From the IMG/VR virus record IMGVR_UViG_3300045988_166199, positions 9,605 to 73,604 of that record: a stretch of 64,000 nt of DNA, one strand, 5' to 3'. Under the pieces are notes generated by a model. That model was given only the letters and a program-made list of their open reading frames with translations, was not told the origin of the DNA and made no database searches. A program made the translations under genes and the position numbers. Shown in pieces: positions 1,877 through 39,548 of this stretch (positions are counted from its first letter, which is position 1; the number at the start of each line of letters is the position of its first letter). The stretch comes from a virus. Lineage: Duplodnaviria > Heunggongvirae > Uroviricota > Caudoviricetes.

Positions 1877-3217
1877 ATGACCGAACTTTGCCATACAGGA
1901 CGCGGGCTGTCCGAAGAGTTTGATGAAGATTTCCAGAACAGACTGACGGCATATTTTTGTCGTGATCACGAGTTTCTTACTCGTGCGGGAGATCTGGTTG
2001 TGCCTAGCCAATTTGCCAATGCGGCCAATGCCATATTGGTTAATATGGTTTCGGGCTATTACCGTATGTACAAGAGCGCGCCTTCTTCATCTGCGATTCT
2101 GGATATGCTTAAGCGCGCGAAACGCGATAAGACCATCCGTGAGGAACTCTTCCCGGATGTTGTTGCTGCGTTTAAGCGCATCCTTGCAGAAAAATTGTCT
2201 GATACCTCGTACATGGTTGACCAGGTATCCACATTCGCAAAAAGTGTAGCGTTTGATGATGCTCTGATTAAAGCTGCTGAACTGAAAGAGAAGGGCGACT
2301 TTCAGGGGGCGATGGCAATCATGGCCAAGGTTCAGCAGATAGGCTCGAACGAAGCGACCGGAATCTATGACTACTACACCTCCGCAAGTGAGCGATTGAA
2401 AGCGCGTGAATATGAGGCTTCAGAGGAGTATGTGCCAAACAGCATTACAACTGGACTCCCTCTGCTCGATAGGTTGCTGTACCAAAAAGGCTGGGCGAAG
2501 CGTGAAATGGTGCTCTTCATGGGGTTCGCTAAATCCGGCAAATCGACCGCAATGGGTGAGTTTTCCATAAACGCAACGCTTGCTGGCTACAATGTTCTGT
2601 ATCTCTCGCTGGAGGTTCACACCACCATTTTATCCGACCGTTTTGATGCAAGATTGTCGGAGACAGAAATGTCCAAGCTGGTGGAACGGCGCGATGAGGT
2701 TCATCGTAAGTTGGCAGAGTTGGGAGCCACGAAGGGGATTGGTAGTTTGTGGGTGGTTGAGCGTCCGTCAGGAAGTATGTCACCGGCAGATCTGGACCGT
2801 ATGCTTAACAGCATGAAAGCCAACGGCATGGTGCCTGACATGGTTGTTGTCGACTACGCAGATTTGATGCGTGCCAGTTATGACCTTCGTGATGATCGCG
2901 CCAACATTCGTAGTATCTACACCGATTTACGTGCTCTTTATGACAAGCATAACGTTGCTGGTATCACGGCGTCGCAAACAAACCGTGAAGGTGGCGCGTC
3001 AGAAGTTGCCACAATGATGCACGCTGCCGACAACATCGAAAAAGTACGTATTGCTGACCTGGTAATAACGATCAACAAAACCGAAGAAGAAGAAGCGAAA
3101 GGAGAGGCTCGTCTCTACTTTGCTGGTTCGCGTAACCAGCAGGGAGGGATCAGCATTCGCGTTAAACAAAACCTCGAACAAATGCGCTTCATTGAGCGAA
3201 TCTTAGACGTTACCTAA
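1877..3217 (+). CDS. DnaB-like replicative DNA helicase
   Basis: Walker A GFAKSGKST, Walker B-like DMVVVDYADLM, SQTNREG motif typical of DnaB/gp4-family helicases; extended RBS context AAAGGAAAGCACATG; immediately upstream of primase. Confidence 0.75.
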   Translation: MTELCHTGRGLSEEFDEDFQNRLTAYFCRDHEFLTRAGDLVVPSQFANAANAILVNMVSGYYRMYKSAPSSSAILDMLKRAKRDKTIREELFPDVVAAFKRILAEKLSDTSYMVDQVSTFAKSVAFDDALIKAAELKEKGDFQGAMAIMAKVQQIGSNEATGIYDYYTSASERLKAREYEASEEYVPNSITTGLPLLDRLLYQKGWAKREMVLFMGFAKSGKSTAMGEFSINATLAGYNVLYLSLEVHTTILSDRFDARLSETEMSKLVERRDEVHRKLAELGATKGIGSLWVVERPSGSMSPADLDRMLNSMKANGMVPDMVVVDYADLMRASYDLRDDRANIRSIYTDLRALYDKHNVAGITASQTNREGGASEVATMMHAADNIEKVRIADLVITINKTEEEEAKGEARLYFAGSRNQQGGISIRVKQNLEQMRFIERILDVT

Positions 3218-3298: not shown

Positions 3299-4480
3299 AT
3301 GAGCCTTTATGTTATATCAACATTTAGGTTGGTCACAATATTGCCTGTTAAAAGTGGAATTATCGTGAGCGAGCTGAAAGAGCTAATTACCGAATTAGAT
3401 TTTGAACAATGGTTGGATACTGAAGGTATCGTTTATCGACGTGGAGGCGTGAGTACTCGCGGTCGTGAAGTGAATATCAAGGAGTGTCCGGTATGCGGCA
3501 GCTCCAACTGGAAGGTATATTTCAATCTGACCAGTGGCGTCGGTAAATGCTTCGCTGGTGATCATCCCGAAGAGATTCAGTTCAATAAGCTGGTCTTCCT
3601 CAAGCACTACAGCGGTAAATCACGACGACAGTTCGAGGAATATGTGCAGAACGCTCTTCTTTCCCAGGGGTGGGCACCAAAGAAAGAAGAGATAGTGCTT
3701 GCAAGCACAGTCGAGTTAGAGGGACCAGTTGCACTCCCTCGTCATTACGATCTTCCTATAGATGGCCATCTTCCAGACTATCTGGTTGAACGAAATATAT
3801 CGCCTGAAATGGCAAAGTATTTTGACCTACGATACTGCGTCGAAGGCAAGCACGCTTATGTAGATCCGTATACAGATCAGGTTAAAGGACAGATTTTCGA
3901 TATGCGAATACTGATACCGGTTTACGATCTGGATGGGGTAATGAAGACATTTCAAGGACGAGACATTACCGGTACAGCAGAACGCCGCTACCTCTTTCCT
4001 ATGCAGCTTCCAGCTTCAGGTAAGTTTCTCTACAACGGCCACAATGCAGTCGGCAAACAGACTGTAGTTGTCTGTGAGGGGGCGTTCGATGTTATGGGGG
4101 TCAAACGAGCTATTTTTGACGAAGAAACATTACGCGATTACGTGGAACCAATAGGAACGTTCGGGATGCATCTATCTGGTAACACCACTCAGGATGCAGA
4201 AGATCAGTTGGGCGCGTTCCTGACGCTCAAGGCGCGTGGATTACGTAATGTGATCATGATGTGGGATAGTGAAAAGCAAGCTATACGAAACACTATGGCC
4301 GCAGCCAGGCGACTGACCAGTATCGGTCTTAATGTGAAAATTGCATGTTTGGGCGAGGAAGGACTCGACCCCGGCGATGCGACCCCGGGGCAGATTATCA
4401 AAGCCTACTATTGCGCAAAACCTTACTCACGACAGCTTGAACTTTTAAGCAAGGTAAAAGGCATAGCAGCATTAGTTTGA
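3299..4480 (+). CDS. DnaG-like DNA primase (zinc ribbon + TOPRIM)
   Basis: Zn-ribbon CPVCGSS..GKCF; TOPRIM-like VVCEGAFDVMG; start placed at in-frame ATG 3299 preceded by AAAGAAAAACACATG (ORF track starts at 3227). Confidence 0.75.
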   Translation: MSLYVISTFRLVTILPVKSGIIVSELKELITELDFEQWLDTEGIVYRRGGVSTRGREVNIKECPVCGSSNWKVYFNLTSGVGKCFAGDHPEEIQFNKLVFLKHYSGKSRRQFEEYVQNALLSQGWAPKKEEIVLASTVELEGPVALPRHYDLPIDGHLPDYLVERNISPEMAKYFDLRYCVEGKHAYVDPYTDQVKGQIFDMRILIPVYDLDGVMKTFQGRDITGTAERRYLFPMQLPASGKFLYNGHNAVGKQTVVVCEGAFDVMGVKRAIFDEETLRDYVEPIGTFGMHLSGNTTQDAEDQLGAFLTLKARGLRNVIMMWDSEKQAIRNTMAAARRLTSIGLNVKIACLGEEGLDPGDATPGQIIKAYYCAKPYSRQLELLSKVKGIAALV

Positions 4481-5617
4481 ACCAGTATTAGTCACGTACA
4501 CATTGACCGAAAATGATTTAACTTCTGTGTTGAAGTTGTCAGTCATTACCGCGAGGTAGGCATTCTTGGTATCTCTGAATTGCTTCAGGATGATTTGAAC
4601 GTTGTCGGTGCAAACAAACGAGGTAGCCAGATTGCCTCCTTTCTCTGAAAAATCCTTCAGGAAGGTGCAGTCAACTTTGCCATCATTAGCGGTGAAGGTA
4701 GCATCATCACCCTGCCAGGTAAATGTAGCGTTAACGCCCTTATCAATGGATTTAGCAATAAGTCGCTGGGTGGCGGATTTTGTTTTGGCTTTGGAAGCCG
4801 GCGCTCGATATTTGCCGCTTTCTTTCAGTTCTGCAATGTAATCGCAGCCTCTTTTTTCTCCTTTATCGCAAGCAGTCTGATAAAGGTCGGCTGCTTTTTT
4901 ATAGTCCTTTTTTACACCTTCCCCATTCTCATACATAATGCCAAGATTGGTTATGGCGTCGGCGTTTCCAAGTTCCGCTGCCTTTTTATACCACTTAACT
5001 GCTTCTGCATCATTGCGTTTAACGCCTAACCCATCATCGTATAGTATTCCTAATCCTATCATAGCTTCTGAACTGCCTTGGTCTGCCGCCTTTTTGTAAT
5101 AAGTAAAAGCCTTTTTATAATTCTTTTTAACGCCTTTACCATATTGGTAATACGCCCCAAGAACTGAAGTTGCTTTAACATACCCGGCATCAGAGGCTAG
5201 TTTGAAGTATTTAATGGCGAGTGCATGATCTACTTTACCAAGCATCCCCTTTTGATAAATAGCACCAAGATTGTTGTAGGCTCTACCTTCACGAGCATCC
5301 CCCGCAAGTTTGTAGTACTCAACAGCTTTATTTAGGTCTTTATCTACACCCTCGCCAAATGTGTACATAACTCCAAGTGCATAATATGCTACTTTATCTC
5401 CCTTTTCTGCAGCTAGATCAATCCACTTCTTGGCCTCAACTACATCCTTATCAAAACCATTGACACCATCAAAATAATTTGTACCTAACTCACTTTGTGC
5501 TGCGGTATCCCCTGCGGTAGCGGCTTCTATCAGCGTTTGTTTATTGTCTGCGTTAACGAATCCAGAGTTAAAAAGCAAAGTTAATGCCAGCAACGATGAA
5601 GATTTTATGTATTTCAT
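4472..5617 (-). CDS. secreted Sel1-like repeat (SLR) protein
   Basis: N-terminal signal peptide; about 7 tandem Sel1/TPR-like repeats (A.YYLG.MY..G.GV.KD...A..WY.KAA); opposite strand to flanking replication genes. Confidence 0.75.
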   Translation of the reverse strand: MKYIKSSSLLALTLLFNSGFVNADNKQTLIEAATAGDTAAQSELGTNYFDGVNGFDKDVVEAKKWIDLAAEKGDKVAYYALGVMYTFGEGVDKDLNKAVEYYKLAGDAREGRAYNNLGAIYQKGMLGKVDHALAIKYFKLASDAGYVKATSVLGAYYQYGKGVKKNYKKAFTYYKKAADQGSSEAMIGLGILYDDGLGVKRNDAEAVKWYKKAAELGNADAITNLGIMYENGEGVKKDYKKAADLYQTACDKGEKRGCDYIAELKESGKYRAPASKAKTKSATQRLIAKSIDKGVNATFTWQGDDATFTANDGKVDCTFLKDFSEKGGNLATSFVCTDNVQIILKQFRDTKNAYLAVMTDNFNTEVKSFSVNVYVTNTGSN

Positions 5618-5850
5618 GTTTTTTTGTTCTGTTGATATAGGATGAACAGTTTAGACGCGGCAAGCGTCAAGTGTGCGAAAAGGGTACTTAAATTTAGTTA
5701 ATCTGTCAGCTTTGATAATTTAATTTATGAACTGTAAAGTTGATGTGATATTAATCACCGATGGAAATAATGAGCTATGGAATTATTGTGACACGGCTCG
5801 TGTTTTGGTTAACTAATACCTACGATAAATATAAATAAAGGGAAGTCAAA

Positions 5851-6264
5851 ATGAGCAAAAAGAAGTTGATTTTAACAGGTGCTTTATTGTCTTTGTTTGC
5901 ATTAGTTGGGTGTAAGCCTACAGACGAGAAGGCTATTACTCTGGGCCAACAGGCAATTGCGGATGATATGAAAGATCCCACGTCGGTGATGTTTAGGAAA
6001 GATAAGTTTGTCAGGACTGATCATGATGATGGGAGTGTGACAGGCTTTGTGTGTGGTGAATTAAACGCCAAAAATGGCTTTGGTGCATACGTGGGCTATC
6101 ACTCATATGTTGTTGAACTCGAAATGAAGCCAAAGGGCATGTTTTCAAAAGGGGTGGTATACAAAATCCTATCGAAGTCGTTGGCACCTAATGATCCTCA
6201 TGATTTACAGCGTTATAAGCAGGTCTACAGAAAGATGTGCAACAGTGAGGCTGTAGCTCATTAA
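5851..6264 (+). CDS. putative lipoprotein (137 aa)
   Basis: Signal peptide with lipobox LVGC. Confidence 0.55.
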   Translation: MSKKKLILTGALLSLFALVGCKPTDEKAITLGQQAIADDMKDPTSVMFRKDKFVRTDHDDGSVTGFVCGELNAKNGFGAYVGYHSYVVELEMKPKGMFSKGVVYKILSKSLAPNDPHDLQRYKQVYRKMCNSEAVAH

Positions 6265-9388: not shown

Positions 9389-9677
9389 GAGCAAGTTAAC
9401 TTCTTGGGAATGGTGGTTGGTCACCTATTTCTTAGCGGCCGGAGTCGCATTCGCCTTTTACGTAGGTCAGTTAGTCGTAAAACTGTTGCTGATTAAATTT
9501 GCTAGTCATAAACGTATCGATGATGGTCTGTGGCGTCTTGGCACCCTGGTGGAAACTCGCTACGGGCAACTTAAGGAGAACGAAACCATTACTATCCAAG
9601 CGAAACAATTCACTGCCACCATCACAAGAACACCTAGTCGTAGAGTGGCCTTGATCAAAAAAGTCACAACCGAATAA
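9387..9677 (+). CDS. putative membrane protein (96 aa)
   Basis: N-terminal hydrophobic helix WWLVTYFLAAGVAFAFYVG. Confidence 0.45.
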   Translation: MSKLTSWEWWLVTYFLAAGVAFAFYVGQLVVKLLLIKFASHKRIDDGLWRLGTLVETRYGQLKENETITIQAKQFTATITRTPSRRVALIKKVTTE

Positions 9678-13295: not shown

Positions 13296-13399
13296 ACGAC
13301 AGGCGGCTATTCTTCTATCAATAAATGATAGGTAAGCACTTACTTTTTACGCACGTTAACTGTATAGTTCTTTCGGATACTCACTTGAAAGGACTCAAT

Positions 13400-15175: not shown

Positions 15176-16279
15176 ATGAAAAATAGCTTTGACAGAGCAC
15201 GCGCTGCGGAGAACACCTCAAAAGAGGCGATTGAGTATCTCGAAAGAGCATCTCAAATGCAGGCCGTTATGATCTCCCAGGTCAGCAATGACATGAGATT
15301 CTCGGACGCATTCATGTTATTCACTCGCTTATCTCTGCTGATAACAAGACGTCGGCCAGAGATCGCTGTTCATTGTATTTTGATACATGTTTTGCCGCAC
15401 ATTGCCGATGTAAAAGTAAGTGATATTAATAGGTTCATGGTGAACCAACTGGTCAACCCACTAATACTGGATGGCAAAATTGTTATGGGTCGCCGCGTTT
15501 TCTCTCTGATGAAGCAGTTCCTCAGCTGGTGCGCCTTCCAGGGGATGATCGACGTGTCACCGTTAAACGATATGTCACTTAACAAAGTTGCCGGTGGCGC
15601 AAAGCCCACACCTCGCGAGCGGAAGCTGACCGACGCAGAGGTATGGGTGTTCTGGAATATATGGGACTACTTCAATGTGTGTGCTGGTACAAAATGGGCG
15701 GCCAGGCTATGTCTTGTATCCGCAAGACGACCTGACGAAGTACTGCGGGCTAAAAAAAGTGAGTTCAATCTTAAGCGTGGGGTTTGGAATCAAGGCAAGA
15801 GGAACAAATCTGCCCGTGAGCATTCTCTGCCTTTAAGCTCATTAATGCGCACATGTATTGAAGAGTTGTTCGAATATGGTAAAGACAGCCAGTGGCTCGT
15901 GCCTTCGAATAAAAAAATCGGGAAAGACCTTCCTATGTCTAAAGTGGCAATAGCCCAGGCATTACGTCGTATTCTGGAACGACCAGAACTGATGGAGCTT
16001 GAGCCATTTACACCCCGAGATTTGCGCCGTACTGCGCGTAGTTACTTCCCAGCATTAGGCATAAGCCAGGAGGTATCACGTAAAATCATGAACCACAGTC
16101 TTGAGGGGATAGATCGGGTCTACGACCGGCACGATTATATGGACGAGATGCGAGACGCCTTAGAAAGTTTCTCGACGTACATCGCATCAATCGTAGAGCA
16201 ACCGGATTTAGACGAAATTGACCACAAATTTAAGGGAGATCGTCTATCAACAGAGCTTATTCGTGTAAATTTTTCATAG
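15176..16279 (+). CDS. tyrosine-type site-specific integrase
   Basis: C-terminal catalytic motifs: R in LVSARRPDE, RDLRRTARS box II, NHS...RVYDRHDY with tyrosine nucleophile; lacks a recognisable P4-type N-terminal arm-binding domain. Confidence 0.8.
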   Translation: MKNSFDRARAAENTSKEAIEYLERASQMQAVMISQVSNDMRFSDAFMLFTRLSLLITRRRPEIAVHCILIHVLPHIADVKVSDINRFMVNQLVNPLILDGKIVMGRRVFSLMKQFLSWCAFQGMIDVSPLNDMSLNKVAGGAKPTPRERKLTDAEVWVFWNIWDYFNVCAGTKWAARLCLVSARRPDEVLRAKKSEFNLKRGVWNQGKRNKSAREHSLPLSSLMRTCIEELFEYGKDSQWLVPSNKKIGKDLPMSKVAIAQALRRILERPELMELEPFTPRDLRRTARSYFPALGISQEVSRKIMNHSLEGIDRVYDRHDYMDEMRDALESFSTYIASIVEQPDLDEIDHKFKGDRLSTELIRVNFS

Positions 16280-16666
16280 AGACTTTATGGCCTCAACAAC
16301 CTTTTGTGATGCGCCTTTCTCTTTACCGAATCGCTCGTTATATGCAGCAAGAACCTGTTTTTCGTCCTCGTTAAGAGGAGCAGTGCCTTCTTTGTATAAA
16401 AATGCTGCGAGTTCGGGTTGGCGTTCTTCCAGCACCATCATCATAAGACGACTTGGCTCAATACCCAGTGCCAGCGCCAGCGGACGAACCTTATCGATAG
16501 GCAAAGGAATTTTGCCGCTTTTAATTAAAGAAAGGTTGTTGGCGTTTTTATACCCAATTGTTTTGGCTATCTGGGCCTGGCTCATAGGTGAGGATTCAAT
16601 CAACCCTGCGATAAAAGCAGCGTAGCGACTTTCTATAAATTCAATCTTGTTATCAGACATGGTCAC
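16274..16666 (-). CDS. XRE-family helix-turn-helix transcriptional regulator
   Basis: HTH motif SQAQIAKTIGYKNANNLSLIKSGK; convergent with and overlapping integrase 3' end. Confidence 0.7.
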   Translation of the reverse strand: MTMSDNKIEFIESRYAAFIAGLIESSPMSQAQIAKTIGYKNANNLSLIKSGKIPLPIDKVRPLALALGIEPSRLMMMVLEERQPELAAFLYKEGTAPLNEDEKQVLAAYNERFGKEKGASQKVVEAIKSL

Positions 16667-16911
16667 AACCTTTGCGCGTTCAATTCTCTCTGGTAAGTGC
16701 TTACCGATATTACATCAAAGGTTAGGGTTGTAAAGCTATTATCATTTTTTTCGATAGGCACTTAAAAGACCGGTTAAAGGCCATTGCACGGAGAAAAATT
16801 AGCCCAAAATAGGTAAGAAAAGTAACTTGCATATGATATGAATGTATTCAGTATTGATACAAATTTTAGTAGTATTCCTTACCATAGTATAAGTTAGAAT
16901 GGATTGATTGA

Positions 16912-28265: not shown

Positions 28266-29339
28266 ATGGCAAAAGGAAAATCCGCACTGGCACTTGCTCT
28301 GAAAAAGAAAATCGGTAGCAACGACGAAATTCAGAAAGTAACTCATTGGATTGATACAGGCTTTCCACCGTTAAACAAAGCTATTTCTGGTCGTTACGAT
28401 GGCGGCTTCCCATGTGGTCGTATCGTCGAAGTATTCGGCCCTCCAAGTGCAGGGAAAACGTTCCTTGCAACAGCAGCAATGATCTCCGCACAGAAACAAG
28501 ATGGTCTGGCGGTATTCCTCGATCATGAAAACAGTTTTGACGTTGGCCTGGCTGTAGCCAATGGCCTGAACGCAGATGAGGATGACGGTCAGTGGGTATA
28601 CAAGCAGCCAGATACCTTCGAAGACTCTGTAGAGTTGATCGGCACAATACTTAAATTGGTTCGTGATGAAGAGCTTATCCCCGAATCAGCACCTATCTGT
28701 ATCGTGGCTGACTCTCTTGCGTCTATGGTTCCGAACTCCAAAGCCGAGAAGTTCGAAAAGATGGCTGAAGGCACTGCCAAAGACAAAGATCAGCTAAACA
28801 TGAACGACAATACGGCACTGGCTCGTGCGACGAGTGCGAACTTCCCTACTCTGGCTTTGTGGGCACGCAAATACAACGCCTGCATCATCTTCTTGAATCA
28901 GGTTCGCACAAAAATCGGTGTAATGTTTGGCGACCCTACTACGTCGCCAGGTGGAGATTCACCGAAGTTCTACGCTTCTGTACGTATCCGTCTTGGTGCA
29001 TCGGTGATGAAGGATGGTAAAGAGAAGATCGGCCAGGACGTAGGCGCAGAATGCATCAAAAACAAAGTTGCACCACCGTATGGCAAATGCACCTGGAAAT
29101 TCTACTTCGATCCTACTCGTGGCCTCGACGTTATCGAATCGCTCGTCGAGTACATGCTGGAAGAAGGATACCTGCCAAAGAACGCCAGCGGGCGAGTTGA
29201 AATTGGTGACAAGAAATACACCAAATCGCAGATCGTTGAGATGTATCGGGAGAAGCCACTGGCTGAAATCATTGCGGCTTTGCAGGCAATCGACGACCGA
29301 AGAGCAAAAGACAACCCCACCGAGTCAGTAGAAGAGTAA
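28266..29339 (+). CDS. RecA/UvsX-like recombinase
   Basis: Walker A GPPSAGKTF; RecA-fold pattern (ICIVADSLASMVP, IFLNQVR). Confidence 0.85.
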   Translation: MAKGKSALALALKKKIGSNDEIQKVTHWIDTGFPPLNKAISGRYDGGFPCGRIVEVFGPPSAGKTFLATAAMISAQKQDGLAVFLDHENSFDVGLAVANGLNADEDDGQWVYKQPDTFEDSVELIGTILKLVRDEELIPESAPICIVADSLASMVPNSKAEKFEKMAEGTAKDKDQLNMNDNTALARATSANFPTLALWARKYNACIIFLNQVRTKIGVMFGDPTTSPGGDSPKFYASVRIRLGASVMKDGKEKIGQDVGAECIKNKVAPPYGKCTWKFYFDPTRGLDVIESLVEYMLEEGYLPKNASGRVEIGDKKYTKSQIVEMYREKPLAEIIAALQAIDDRRAKDNPTESVEE

Positions 29340-29343
29340 ACAC

Positions 29344-29369
29344 AAGGCGTCCACAGGACGCCTTTTTTA
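29344..29369 (+). terminator. rho-independent terminator (GGCGTCC stem family)
   Basis: aaggcgtcc acag gacgcctt ttttat. Confidence 0.75.
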
Positions 29370-29431
29370 TCTCTTGAAAATATATAAGCACTTACTTATT
29401 ATTTTCGCATAACAACCACATAGGAAAACAC

Positions 29432-29632
29432 ATGATCAAAATCTATCTATTGGCAGTAGCCACAGGCCTTTCAGTGGCTCTCATCTACGGTTTACTGGTT
29501 CCGTCGCTGATTTCTACCAAGAGTGATTTAGCCGTCATGTTTGGAGTTATCGTTGGTTTTGGTGCTCCTGTAATCGGTCTTATTGCTGGTCGTAAGTTTA
29601 TCAACTCATTAATCAAAGCAAAGGGGAAATAA
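29432..29632 (+). CDS. small two-TM membrane protein (66 aa)
   Basis: Two hydrophobic helices; 4-bp gap to SPFH gene. Confidence 0.5.
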   Translation: MIKIYLLAVATGLSVALIYGLLVPSLISTKSDLAVMFGVIVGFGAPVIGLIAGRKFINSLIKAKGK

Positions 29633-29635
29633 GTA

Positions 29636-30466
29636 ATGAAGAAAGGTTTACTTGCAGTTGCTCTGGCGGCTATTTGCACAATGGGTCTTACTGGCTGTGA
29701 TCGCGTGGAGCCTGGATACGTTGGCATCAAAGTAAACAAATTAGGTGAAGACAAAGGGATTGGTGAAGTGGTTGGCGTTGGTCGCCAATGGACAGGTCTT
29801 AACACCGAACTTTACGTATTCCCGACCTTCAAACAAATGAAGACCTACGACGAGCCGTTCACATTCCAGATGAGTGACGGTACTGCTATTGGTCACAAAA
29901 TTGGCGTTGCGTATCTGGTTAATCGTGACAAGGTAACGACGGTGTTCCAGACCTATCGCAAAGGCGTAGACGATATCACCGAATCAGATCTGCGTCAGAA
30001 AATTGCCGACTCTCTAAACCGTTTGGCCAGCCGTATGACCACCGACTCATTTATCGACGGTGGTAAGGCACAATTGCTGGACAACGCACTGAAAGATATT
30101 CAGAAAGAGATGTCTCCGGTTGGTATTGAGGTACTGAGCCTGTCATGGGTTGGAAAGCCTGATTACCCAAAAACCGTCATTGAATCTATCAACGCCAAAG
30201 TAACGGCTAACCAGCGTACTCTGCAACGTCAGCAGGAAGTTGAACAGCGTAAAGCTGAGGCGAATATGCTACGTGAACAGGCTAATGGTGAAGCTGATGC
30301 TATCCGTGCTCGTGCGCAAGCAGAAGCCGACGCCATTCGTCTGCGCGGTGAAGCTCTGCGTCAAAACCCGAACGTTATGGAGCTGGAAGCCATCAATAAA
30401 TGGAATGGCCAGTTACCGCAGTACATGACTCAAGGGGCTAACACTCCTTTCATTACAGTGAAATAA
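29636..30466 (+). CDS. SPFH/band-7 (stomatin/prohibitin-like) domain lipoprotein
   Basis: Lipobox LTGC; band-7 core; C-terminal coiled-coil with QRQQEVEQRKAEA...EADAIRARAQAEADAIR repeats. Confidence 0.7.
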   Translation: MKKGLLAVALAAICTMGLTGCDRVEPGYVGIKVNKLGEDKGIGEVVGVGRQWTGLNTELYVFPTFKQMKTYDEPFTFQMSDGTAIGHKIGVAYLVNRDKVTTVFQTYRKGVDDITESDLRQKIADSLNRLASRMTTDSFIDGGKAQLLDNALKDIQKEMSPVGIEVLSLSWVGKPDYPKTVIESINAKVTANQRTLQRQQEVEQRKAEANMLREQANGEADAIRARAQAEADAIRLRGEALRQNPNVMELEAINKWNGQLPQYMTQGANTPFITVK

Positions 30467-30482: not shown

Positions 30483-30508
30483 AGGCGTCCAGTTGGACGC
30501 CTTTTTTA
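30483..30508 (+). terminator. rho-independent terminator (GGCGTCC stem family)
   Basis: aggcgtcc agtt ggacgcct tttttat. Confidence 0.75.
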
Positions 30509-30557: not shown

Positions 30558-30983
30558 ATGACAGCTATTAAGAAACTCTACGATGCCGCAAACGCGGCTC
30601 TGGATGTTATTGATGATGAAGTATCAAAAGGCTTTCCTGAACCTGATTGGGCGCATCAGCTACGAAACGCTATCGCCGAAATGAATCCACCAGATCCGAC
30701 CACCGAGGAGACAGACTGGCAGCGATTCATCCGTATGTACGCTCAGGAAATAGGTCCAACGCCAACGGCAGAGCAGGCAATGCTGCTGAAATACTTCAAA
30801 GAGGCGGGAGAGGATTTACCAATTGATGACTCAGCATATTGGTTCCACTGCGCATGGCGTAAGTATGACGTGATATTCACACAAGGCATGGGAAGCAAAG
30901 ATATGGTTGTGTGGCATCTACTCCATATAGACACAGCCGTTGACAGAGTTATTGAACAGTTTTTCCCTAAACAAGAAGATTGA
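30558..30983 (+). CDS. hypothetical protein (141 aa)
   Basis: ORF preceded by AAAACAATTTGTTTAAA palindrome and RBS. Confidence 0.5.
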   Translation: MTAIKKLYDAANAALDVIDDEVSKGFPEPDWAHQLRNAIAEMNPPDPTTEETDWQRFIRMYAQEIGPTPTAEQAMLLKYFKEAGEDLPIDDSAYWFHCAWRKYDVIFTQGMGSKDMVVWHLLHIDTAVDRVIEQFFPKQED

Positions 30984-31353: not shown

Positions 31354-31533
31354 ATGAAGATTTTTATTGAATACTTGTTACTCATCGTTTCAATAGCTTT
31401 TGTCATCGACTGCATTTTCACTGGTGTCATTCGTAAAGTCTTTTCCCCGGTGCACGACGTAGTCATAAACGCTTTGGCTATCGTGCTCGTATTTAATTCA
31501 GCATTTGATGTAATCAAAGAGGTGGCAGCATGA
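31354..31533 (+). CDS. small membrane protein (59 aa, below ORF-track cutoff)
   Basis: MKIFIEYLLLIVSIAFVIDCIFTG...; stop overlaps next start. Confidence 0.3.
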   Translation: MKIFIEYLLLIVSIAFVIDCIFTGVIRKVFSPVHDVVINALAIVLVFNSAFDVIKEVAA

Positions 31534-31865
31534 AGGCCATCCCATTCGCGCTGTTGTTCCTTTCTTCGATCGTTGTGGCCGACACCACTGTTTATCAGTG
31601 TGAAATGTCTGTAGCCGACGTTAAGAATGGCGCTCTTACCGACGTCATAAAAGCACCATATGGAGCGATGGTCGTAGACAGCGGCGACCAGTTCTATGTT
31701 GTGCGTGACGATCGAGTGTTGTCATCCCCATATCTCACAAATCGTAATGGCAAATTAACCGGCGTCGGAGAAGACCACTTCGTATACAACAAATACAAGG
31801 GCTTCTATGGCGTTCACGCTTCTCAGCAAAGCTACCTTTTCGATGACTGCAAGGAGGTTGGATAA
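31530..31865 (+). CDS. secreted hypothetical protein (111 aa)
   Basis: N-terminal signal peptide MKAIPFALLFLSSIVVA. Confidence 0.5.
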   Translation: MKAIPFALLFLSSIVVADTTVYQCEMSVADVKNGALTDVIKAPYGAMVVDSGDQFYVVRDDRVLSSPYLTNRNGKLTGVGEDHFVYNKYKGFYGVHASQQSYLFDDCKEVG

Positions 31866-39514: not shown

Positions 39515-39548
39515 TTTCATTGATAGGTAAGTGCTTATCTATTAACAT

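Follow-up and report, generated by a model that had tools for sequence, protein, structure and literature searches.

A two-gene cassette for a membrane hairpin protein and an SPFH lipoprotein on an SSU5-like phage-plasmid belongs to a module widespread in phages and bacteria

The SPFH scaffolds, which include HflK/C, prohibitin, stomatin and flotillin, are structurally understood as membrane cages. To our knowledge, all full-length SPFH proteins solved so far form a ring or a dome, and the SPFH protein QmcA faces the cytoplasm. In the SPFH–NfeD operons (QmcA–YbbJ, YqiK–YqiJ and the archaeal stomatin PH1511–PH1510), an SPFH gene is tightly coupled to the gene of a small membrane protein, and the two are occasionally fused. 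SPFH proteins have been described as domed oligomers that abut membranes (PMC12624060). Moreover, small membrane proteins can recruit an SPFH protein when the membrane is under stress, as in the PspA–YdjG/H/I (SamGHI) system of B. subtilis (PMC8581546; bioRxiv 10.64898/2026.02.06.704340). Here, a two-gene cassette is analyzed that lies in a 64,000-nucleotide stretch of DNA from a tailed virus (IMG/VR record IMGVR_UViG_3300045988_166199, positions 9,605 to 73,604), and this whole stretch is referred to as the window. Judged by its nucleotide identity to known elements, the window is an SSU5-like phage-plasmid. The first gene of the cassette encodes a small membrane protein with two transmembrane (TM) segments, the hairpin partner, and the second encodes an SPFH lipoprotein. 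Together they represent, on a phage, a widespread two-gene SPFH module unlike the SPFH partner systems described so far.

An earlier sequence-only reading had assigned the larger protein to the SPFH/band-7 family, and this assignment was borne out by domain and fold. The 276-residue protein matched Pfam PF01145 (Band_7) over profile positions 2–176 of 176 with an E value of 2.6e-30 and 106.2 bits (cutoff 23.6), and it matched PHROG 200 ‘lipoprotein’ at E 3e-108. The AlphaFold model, for which 113 diverse homologues were given as input, reached a predicted local distance difference test (pLDDT) score of 93.1. It was composed of an N-terminal anchor, the SPFH domain (residues 21–176), a continuous helix (residues 179–243), a short helix and a tail. 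The 65-residue helix agreed with the coiled-coil tail that had been proposed from the letters alone. In the tail motif W256-x-G258-x-x-P261, W256, G258 and P261 were near-invariant among the 113 sequences. HflK/HflC, prohibitin and erlin ranked first when the model was compared with the PDB by Foldseek (E 2e-14 to 1e-12), and stomatin, flotillin, QmcA and the major vault protein were ranked lower. There were 64 PDB matches at E <= 1e-3, and each of the 50 listed was either an SPFH protein or the major vault protein, which is related to them in structure. In the sequence search of the PDB, HflK was the sole match (E 0.007). On the evidence of the model, the large protein is a full-length cage-type SPFH protein that is predicted to face the periplasm, and its long helix is, in the modelled fold, the equivalent of the wall-forming coiled coil in SPFH cages. 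The label ‘serine protease’, which several records carry, was rejected because the SPFH fold extends throughout the protein and no protease domain is present. The sole protease-named match was a weak PHROG one (E 2.7e-4) that was confined to the coiled-coil tail (residues 164–257). The label presumably stems from an earlier COG designation, ‘membrane protease subunit, stomatin/prohibitin homologue’.

The lipobox noted earlier on the large protein was confirmed as L-T-G-C with Cys21. The N-terminus, MKKGLLAVALAAICTMGLTG-C21-D-R, was predicted to be a lipoprotein signal peptide with a lipobox (defined as a signal peptide ending in [LVI][ASTVI][GAS]C) and an Asp at position +2. Wherever the motif could be placed in a close homologue, it read C-D-R (93 of 93), and the lipobox Cys was invariant in family alignment A5. 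Among 150 family representatives, 118 carried a lipobox and the remainder had an N-terminal hydrophobic, TM-like segment instead. In these lipobox-less members, the hydrophobic segment directly precedes the same V-x-x-G-x-V-G motif; the most conserved SPFH segment of the large protein, V-E-P-G-x-V-G-I-K-V, begins three residues after Cys21. Under the +2 rule of E. coli, an Asp at +2 retains a lipoprotein in the inner membrane, and retention of the large protein in that membrane is therefore predicted.

The hairpin partner of 66 residues matched PHROG 1130 ‘membrane protein’ (E 2e-25) and has two hydrophobic segments at about residues 7–23 and 35–51, in agreement with the two TM segments of the sequence-only reading. 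The window pair was joined head to tail for modelling and aligned with natural fusions, and the partner was predicted by AlphaFold as a helical hairpin (helices 2–27 and 32–63, pLDDT 81–90). P24, S28 and G38 were at least 90% conserved among 25 diverse partners, and the consensus of the turn in the same set was G-x-x-x-P-x-L-I-S-x-x-[SD]-T. Across the family, the N-terminus carried a charge bias of +1.6, the loop about 0 and the C-terminus +3.0. Since this bias obeys the positive-inside rule and the loop is neutral, the partner is predicted to have an N-in/C-in topology with the conserved turn P24-x-L-I-S28 in the periplasm. Nothing meaningful was returned for the window partner in Pfam, NCBIfam or PADLOC, nor for the partner profile among PDB sequences, and NfeD (PF01957) gave no match to the window partner at E <= 1. 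Similarly, the 25 diverse partners gave scattered hydrophobic noise against Pfam, and the 25 families that they matched most often included neither NfeD nor a family of the Imm type. A protein of about 66 residues is also too short for the C-terminal OB-fold domain of NfeD.

Compared with the described systems, HflK/HflC, prohibitin and erlin share with the large protein an anchor, the SPFH domain, one long wall helix, a C-terminal closure segment and a non-cytoplasmic orientation, which is predicted here for the cassette. HflK/HflC differ in their TM-helix anchor and paralogous SPFH pair, whereas the cassette has a predicted lipid anchor, one SPFH gene and a dedicated two-TM hairpin partner that HflK/C lack. 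The scores for TIGR01933 (18.7 vs 159.4 bits) and TIGR01932 (30.2 vs 134.4 bits) stayed below the NCBIfam equivalog cutoffs. An identity as HflK or HflC was rejected on these sub-cutoff scores, the single SPFH gene and the lipobox anchor. The SPFH–NfeD operons resemble the cassette in their tight coupling and occasional fusions, and the QmcA–YbbJ complex was a weaker fold match (8z5g, E 7.5e-8). However, the cassette partner has about 60–80 residues without an NfeD or OB-fold domain, the partner gene precedes the SPFH gene, and the SPFH domain is predicted to be exported rather than cytoplasmic. An identity as an SPFH–NfeD operon was rejected because the partner has no NfeD domain. The PspA–YdjG/H/I system is conceptually the nearest; YdjI/SamI differs in being cytosolic, linked to PspA and devoid of a lipobox, and no homology of the partners was detected. 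The direct orthologues of the cassette (PHROG 1130 plus PHROG 200) are SSU5_061/SSU5_062, CYRAN_56/57 and P88 gp11/gp12, which show no structural difference. The genes are thus already deposited, annotated as ‘membrane protein’ and as ‘lipoprotein / stomatin-like / SPFH’. Literature searches on phage SPFH lipoproteins returned annotation-level mentions, and no description of a function, pairing or fusion was found in them. A phage paper of 2026 states that why a phage should carry such a lipoprotein ‘remains unclear’ (PMC13239085).

The coupling of the two genes, which had been proposed from the window, was retained in relatives. In 82 of 83 viral loci (80 IMG/VR contigs plus Cyrano, phiP27 and P88), a two-TM open reading frame (ORF) abuts or overlaps the SPFH start, and the sole exception is cut by a contig end. 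The pair was present in the P2-like phage P88 (gp11/gp12), the N4-like Erwinia phage S6, the jumbo Salmonella phage PHA46, the crAss-like IAS virus and Burkholderia phi644-2, as well as in Alcaligenes and Salmonella prophages. It also occurs in Dyella in a chromosomal, non-phage context, and in the rV5-like Klebsiella phage KB57 with one gene intervening. In two reference phages the partner ORF is unannotated, with 62 residues in the Stx phage phiP27 (4756–4944 of the retrieved locus) and 78 residues in the P1-like RCS47 (about 2738–2974 of the retrieved locus). In databases, the pairing is masked by the under-annotation of small ORFs. In the P1-like variant, the 78-residue partner overlaps the SPFH start by 20 nucleotides (nt), for example at 3784–4020 and 4001–4828 of one locus. 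A scan of one genome per species, with a 16-sequence alignment as the query, gave 80 bacterial loci from Enterobacterales, Sutterella, many Dyella, Cupriavidus, Leptospira, Sphingomonas, Bacteroidales and Saprospirales, among others. A match to the partner hidden Markov model (HMM) stood directly upstream of the SPFH gene, or in the same ORF, in 73 of them. This count is a lower bound (at least 73 of 80), and two more partners were recognized by eye, among them that of one HMM-negative Sutterella locus. In an HMM-negative Shigella locus (2450–2970 of the retrieved sequence), an IS1-like sequence replaces the partner upstream of a 79%-identical SPFH gene, which survives alone. A second locus of the Shigella flexneri / E. 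coli chromosome set was also negative by the partner HMM.

Furthermore, the two proteins are fused in part of the family. When 1.84 billion proteins were searched, 18 of the 150 top-ranked representatives (of clusters at 50% identity) proved to be single-chain fusions, so that at least 18 independent lineages are fused, and further fusions were seen, including one in a Rhodopseudomonas prophage. The layout of the fusions is the hairpin with its motif, a third hydrophobic segment that ends in a lipobox-like Cys, and the SPFH domain. This topology is as expected if the C-terminus of the hairpin and the lipoprotein signal peptide are both cytoplasmic. As deduced from their sequences, the fusions argue for a functional 1:1 complex of hairpin and SPFH protein. 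A deposited E. coli protein of 347 residues (cluster of 8 members) is a frameshift fusion of the P1-like pair, which could be a sequencing error or a natural fusion.

A candidate partner in another phage was examined and rejected. In PhiSH19, a Vi01-like Salmonella phage, the ‘superinfection exclusion protein’ beside the SPFH gene is acidic, has no hydrophobic segment and is unrelated to the partner. The true SPFH neighbour there is an unannotated two-TM ORF of 72 residues (2432–2650, minus strand of the retrieved locus), which overlaps the SPFH start by 4 nt. The SPFH lipoprotein of PhiSH19 is more distant, with 264 residues, and the 72-residue ORF has a long basic loop and is without the P-x-L-I-S motif. 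It may represent a second, different type of small partner.

The features of the cassette are listed in Table 1. Both genes stand at the positions given by the sequence-only reading, except that the gap between them, put there at 4 bp, is 3 nt long (TAA-gta-ATG). The hairpin and SPFH ORFs share a reading frame and are separated by one stop codon and one codon. A Shine–Dalgarno-like AGGA is located six nt upstream of the first ATG, and a GGGGA lies inside the 3' end of the hairpin ORF, eight nt upstream of the SPFH ATG. This placement is consistent with coupled translation of the two ORFs. The two flanking terminators were likewise found as described, with identical arms. The arms GGCGTCC/GGACGCC occurred in the window at these two terminators only (0 expected, never in shuffles), and the folding energies were -14.7 kcal/mol (z = -6.6) for the upstream terminator and -15.1 kcal/mol (z = -5.1) for the downstream one. 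The upstream terminator is conserved in the SSU5, Cyrano, Kluyvera and Y. pestis elements, with a compensatory T>C/A>G stem change in one from Y. pestis, and the downstream stem is identical in the four. In seven SSU5-like relatives, the -35 hexamer was invariant, the spacer nearly so, and the -10 hexamer varied at one position (TATYAT/TATAAT). The promoter and terminators were more conserved than the flanks among SSU5-like elements. From its position, the upstream terminator is taken to end the recA-like gene and to insulate the cassette. By these signals, the pair forms a separate transcription unit, insulated by the two terminators and served by the promoter that lies between them.

Table 1. 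Coordinates of the cassette and its surrounding signals in the window
Feature	Position	Strand	Basis or detail
Hairpin partner ORF	29432..29632	+	66 aa; ORF listing
SPFH lipoprotein ORF	29636..30466	+	276 aa; ORF listing
Predicted lipoprotein signal peptide, residues 1-20, with lipobox LTGC	29636..29701	+	Cys21 = 29696-29698; Asp22 at +2
SPFH domain, residues 23-209 by Pfam	29702..30262	+	Pfam and AlphaFold
Single long helix, residues 179-243	30170..30364	+	AlphaFold secondary structure
Upstream intrinsic terminator	29344..29364	+	Terminator scan; stem GGCGTCC/GGACGCC followed by T-run
Sigma-70-like promoter TTGAAA-17-TATTAT	29374..29402	+	10/12 consensus match
Palindromic core TAAGCACTTA in promoter spacer, candidate operator	29385..29394	.	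Four sites in the window vs 0.28 expected
Downstream intrinsic terminator	30483..30502	+	Terminator scan; stem same as upstream one
recA-like gene upstream of cassette	28266..29339		

The relationship of the window to known elements was evaluated by nucleotide identity. The region was 98–100% identical to E. coli phage-plasmids of about 108 kb and 95% identical to phages PhiR41_1 and Cyrano (94.6% at the Cyrano locus). The identity to Salmonella phage SSU5 was 78% over the stretch from recA to the downstream part. SSU5 carries the orthologous pair, namely SSU5_061 ‘membrane protein’ (66 residues) and SSU5_062 ‘lipoprotein’ (276 residues), with a 3-nt spacer. The slot after recA is a variable cargo site, because in the Klebsiella SSU5-like phage-plasmid pJN2-26 it holds two unrelated minus-strand genes (258 and 40 residues; 4610–5510 of the retrieved locus).

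Expression of the pair was explored in Cyrano, the SSU5-like phage-plasmid of E. coli LF82, for which values are given as log2(fpkm+5), where fpkm denotes fragments per kilobase per million (PMC9928086, S1 Table). The values for CYRAN_56, the hairpin gene, were 2.32 / 2.32 in stationary phase in lysogeny broth (LB) and 7.61 / 7.70 in macrophages at 6 h post infection; those for CYRAN_57, the SPFH gene, were 4.30 / 3.02 and 7.25 / 7.42, respectively (PMC9928086). The flanking genes stayed low in macrophages at 6 h, with about 4.05 for recA and about 4.0 for CYRAN_58 (PMC9928086). Moreover, CYRAN_56/57 are absent from the list of morons expressed in the lysogen, which had been built on LB transcriptomes (PMC9928086). 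In this 95%-identical relative, the pair was at or near the detection floor in LB, that is, it did not behave as a moron expressed in the lysogen under standard growth. It did show the other moron property, which is to be transcribed independently of its neighbours (recA and CYRAN_58) from its own promoter and terminator. As far as the expression data from Cyrano describe it, the cassette is an independent, condition-dependent transcription unit and not a constitutive prophage gene.

The spacer of the promoter contains the core TAAGCACTTA (TAAGYRCTTA), which is the core of the inverted repeat [AG]TAAG-CA-CTTAC. Besides the site in the promoter, the core was found in the window at 13333–13342, 16694–16703 and 39528–39537, that is, four sites against 0.28 expected. 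The site at 16694 is just past the -10 of the promoter of a putative repressor gene (16274..16666, minus strand), and that at 39528 is in a promoter-like spacer upstream of nrdA. In SSU5, three core sites were found in 49 kb (27701, 29752 and 39781 of the retrieved locus) against 0.08 expected, and they lie at the homologous cassette promoter, the nrdA position and one further intergenic site. As a lead only, this pattern suggests that the cassette may be under a phage-encoded dimeric regulator that binds the palindrome as its candidate operator.

The distribution of the family was examined in phages and bacteria. By phmmer, 2,816 cluster representatives were retrieved at E <= 1e-3 and 195 at E <= 1e-30, and by tblastn the family was found in 373 of 50,697 phage records. 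The strictly lytic carriers include Bruynoghevirus, Schitoviridae, Vequintavirinae, jumbo, phiCbK-like, Lak and crAss-like phages, and temperate phages carry it too. A homologue was present in 760 of 5,426 complete E. coli genomes (14%). The full SSU5-type cassette accounted for 195 of these 760 carriers and was located on plasmids of about 106–112 kb; the others were on P1-like plasmids or on prophages in the chromosome. The usual place of the pair in temperate phages is an early or replication region. It stands between cox and a replication gene in P88, within the gene block from the helix-turn-helix regulators to xis-int in phiP27, and between the genes of a single-stranded DNA-binding protein and DNA polymerase A in a Salmonella prophage. 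In the Rhodopseudomonas prophage, the fusion follows a gene of the dCMP-deaminase family and is three genes before int.

With moderate confidence, the cassette is proposed to encode an SPFH scaffold of two subunits at the periplasmic side of the inner membrane, which may buffer or partition the membrane under stress or during phage development. The architecture is the well-supported part of this proposal, and the client and the phenotype are guesses. As predicted from its sequence, the large protein would be exported, acquire a lipid at Cys21 and stay in the inner membrane, anchored in the outer leaflet. The SPFH domain and the long helix would then lie in the periplasm, on the same side as HflK/C, and the protein would oligomerize into a ring or dome like the solved SPFH proteins. 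The hairpin would be its integral-membrane subunit in a ratio of roughly 1:1, with the turn P-x-L-I-S at the membrane surface beside the V-E-P-G-x-V-G-I-K-V segment. In this position, the hairpin may supply a transmembrane ‘fence’ beyond the reach of a lipid anchor alone, and hairpin and SPFH protein together may delimit an inner-membrane microdomain. Transcription would possibly be set by a phage regulator that binds the palindrome in the promoter spacer. The pay-off would be an inner membrane that is kept intact and energized during cell stress or phage development. We do not think that the cassette acts through a protease or as a classical defence system.

Several points weigh against the scaffold proposal. 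Oligomerization, lipidation, localization and the contact between hairpin and SPFH protein are predictions from sequence and modelling, and the stress-buffering role derives from one published transcriptome of a relative together with analogy. Several other Cyrano genes also rise in macrophages, and the signal need not be specific. No recognizable partner was found in the Pseudomonas TL-like phages, the phiCbK-like phages and a few bacterial loci. Partner and SPFH genes also recombine, as in Salmonella, where a phiP27-like partner stands beside a KB57-like SPFH gene; therefore, any interface must be generic. In addition, the Asp at +2 is not family-wide, with Ser and Thr commoner in distant members. 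Inner-membrane retention is therefore argued only for the enterobacterial clade and for the fused or hydrophobic-anchored relatives.

Superinfection exclusion or anti-phage defence at the inner membrane, in which scaffold and hairpin would block phage genome entry or trigger an abortive response, is an unlikely alternative. The sequence-only reading had offered exclusion and the modulation of membrane proteases as possibilities. T4 Imm/Sp and T5 Llp are its analogues in logic. The predicted envelope location would suit such a role, as would an insulated, moron-like cassette in a slot that holds other genes in pJN2-26. The spread over unrelated temperate backbones and 14% of the complete E. coli genomes points the same way, and so does the presence in early regions of lytic phages, which likewise gain from exclusion; PHROG, too, places the partner under ‘moron/host takeover’. 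However, PADLOC-DB v2 gave 0 families for either protein at E <= 0.1, and the partner is without a Pfam match, so that no similarity of the T4 Imm type was detected. The silence of the Cyrano pair in LB argues against a constitutively expressed exclusion gene, and its absence from the authors' moron list is unlike typical prophage exclusion genes. The chromosomal pair is, moreover, conserved in many Dyella species among non-phage neighbours. A broader idea, speculative and likewise improbable, is that the pair represents an undescribed ancient class of periplasmic membrane cages with two components, separate from both HflK/C and SPFH–NfeD. Phages of every lifestyle, from temperate phages and phage-plasmids to N4-like, rV5-like, jumbo and crAss-like ones, would have captured it repeatedly to fence off part of the host inner membrane. 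Such a cage could protect the infected cell against superinfection or against abortive-infection effectors that attack membranes. Where the two proteins are fused, signal peptidase II would act at the retained lipobox and split the precursor into the two subunits.

The large protein may instead mimic HflK/C, with a cage that encloses or competes for FtsH or another membrane protease and thereby tunes protein turnover, for example of lysis–lysogeny regulators. FtsH with HflK/C controls the stability of lambda CII, and HflK/HflC in FtsH complexes were, with prohibitin, the best structural matches of the model. The sole PDB sequence match was to HflK (E 0.007), a weak HflC/HflK signal was present in NCBIfam (E 2e-7), and the predicted periplasmic orientation is the same as that of HflK/C. 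The pair also lies in early operons near regulators and int in the phiP27, P88 and Rhodopseudomonas prophages. We nevertheless consider this mimicry doubtful. The identity to HflK/C is 15–18%, no better than to erlin or prohibitin, the NCBIfam score (30 vs 134 bits) is far under the equivalog cutoff, and a single SPFH gene stands in place of the HflK/HflC heteropair. Furthermore, the family occurs in strictly lytic phages, which have no lysogeny decision.

A role in lysogenic conversion or virulence appears quite improbable. In this case, the product would be a surface or vesicle lipoprotein that aids survival in host tissue or stimulates innate immunity, and the phage would be its vehicle. 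The Cyrano homologue is induced in macrophages at 6 h. A prophage ‘HflK/C-like’ protein of Pasteurella multocida (PM0222, 25–35 kDa) is present in outer-membrane vesicles, triggers signalling via TLR1/2 and adds to virulence in mice (PMC9872710), which would bear on the cassette only if PM0222 is homologous to the family. The Asp at +2 predicts inner-membrane retention rather than surface exposure, and many family members come from lytic phages of environmental bacteria or from soil bacteria, Dyella for example, for which virulence is irrelevant. Finally, a function in lysis, as a spanin-like or holin-regulating pair, or as an enzyme, the ‘serine protease’ of older annotations, is extremely improbable and effectively excluded by the domain and fold analysis, since an inner-membrane protein beside a coiled-coil lipoprotein is only superficially spanin-like, Cyrano has its holin, endolysin and Rz/Rz1 annotated elsewhere, and the protease name in several records meets an SPFH fold throughout, no protease domain and a weak, tail-only PHROG match.

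The proposed scaffold matters as a compact, mobile, two-gene version of SPFH architecture that is easily transplanted and has a partner unlike any described. The 1:1 complex predicted by the fusions would make it a tractable system in which to study the anchoring and the contents of an SPFH cage. If phage entry, membrane stress or survival in macrophages were indeed affected, the cassette would be a common and overlooked factor in the phage–host and host–pathogen interactions of Enterobacterales. If there were no phenotype, it would be an ordinary conserved hypothetical pair, and annotations such as ‘serine protease’, ‘hypothetical protein’ and un-called small ORFs would still need correcting. 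The cassette is not surprising in kind, yet it is common, mobile and experimentally tractable.

Some variation was also seen around the cassette. The recA-like gene has 1074 nt in the window vs 2340 nt in Cyrano (3672–6011 of the retrieved locus), and in PhiR41_1 this gene is likewise enlarged, by an insertion of about 1.27 kb. The pattern suggests an intein or homing-endonuclease insertion in some relatives. A deposited chimaera of 303 residues joins SPFH residues 1–225 to the C-terminal part of the downstream 141-residue protein (window 30558–30983) and therefore represents a deletion variant of the locus in some assembly. Slightly downstream of the cassette, at 31354–31865 of the window, there are a hydrophobic ORF of 59 residues and an ORF of 111 residues with a signal-peptide-like N-terminus, and their Cyrano counterparts, CYRAN_60/61, are also induced in macrophages.

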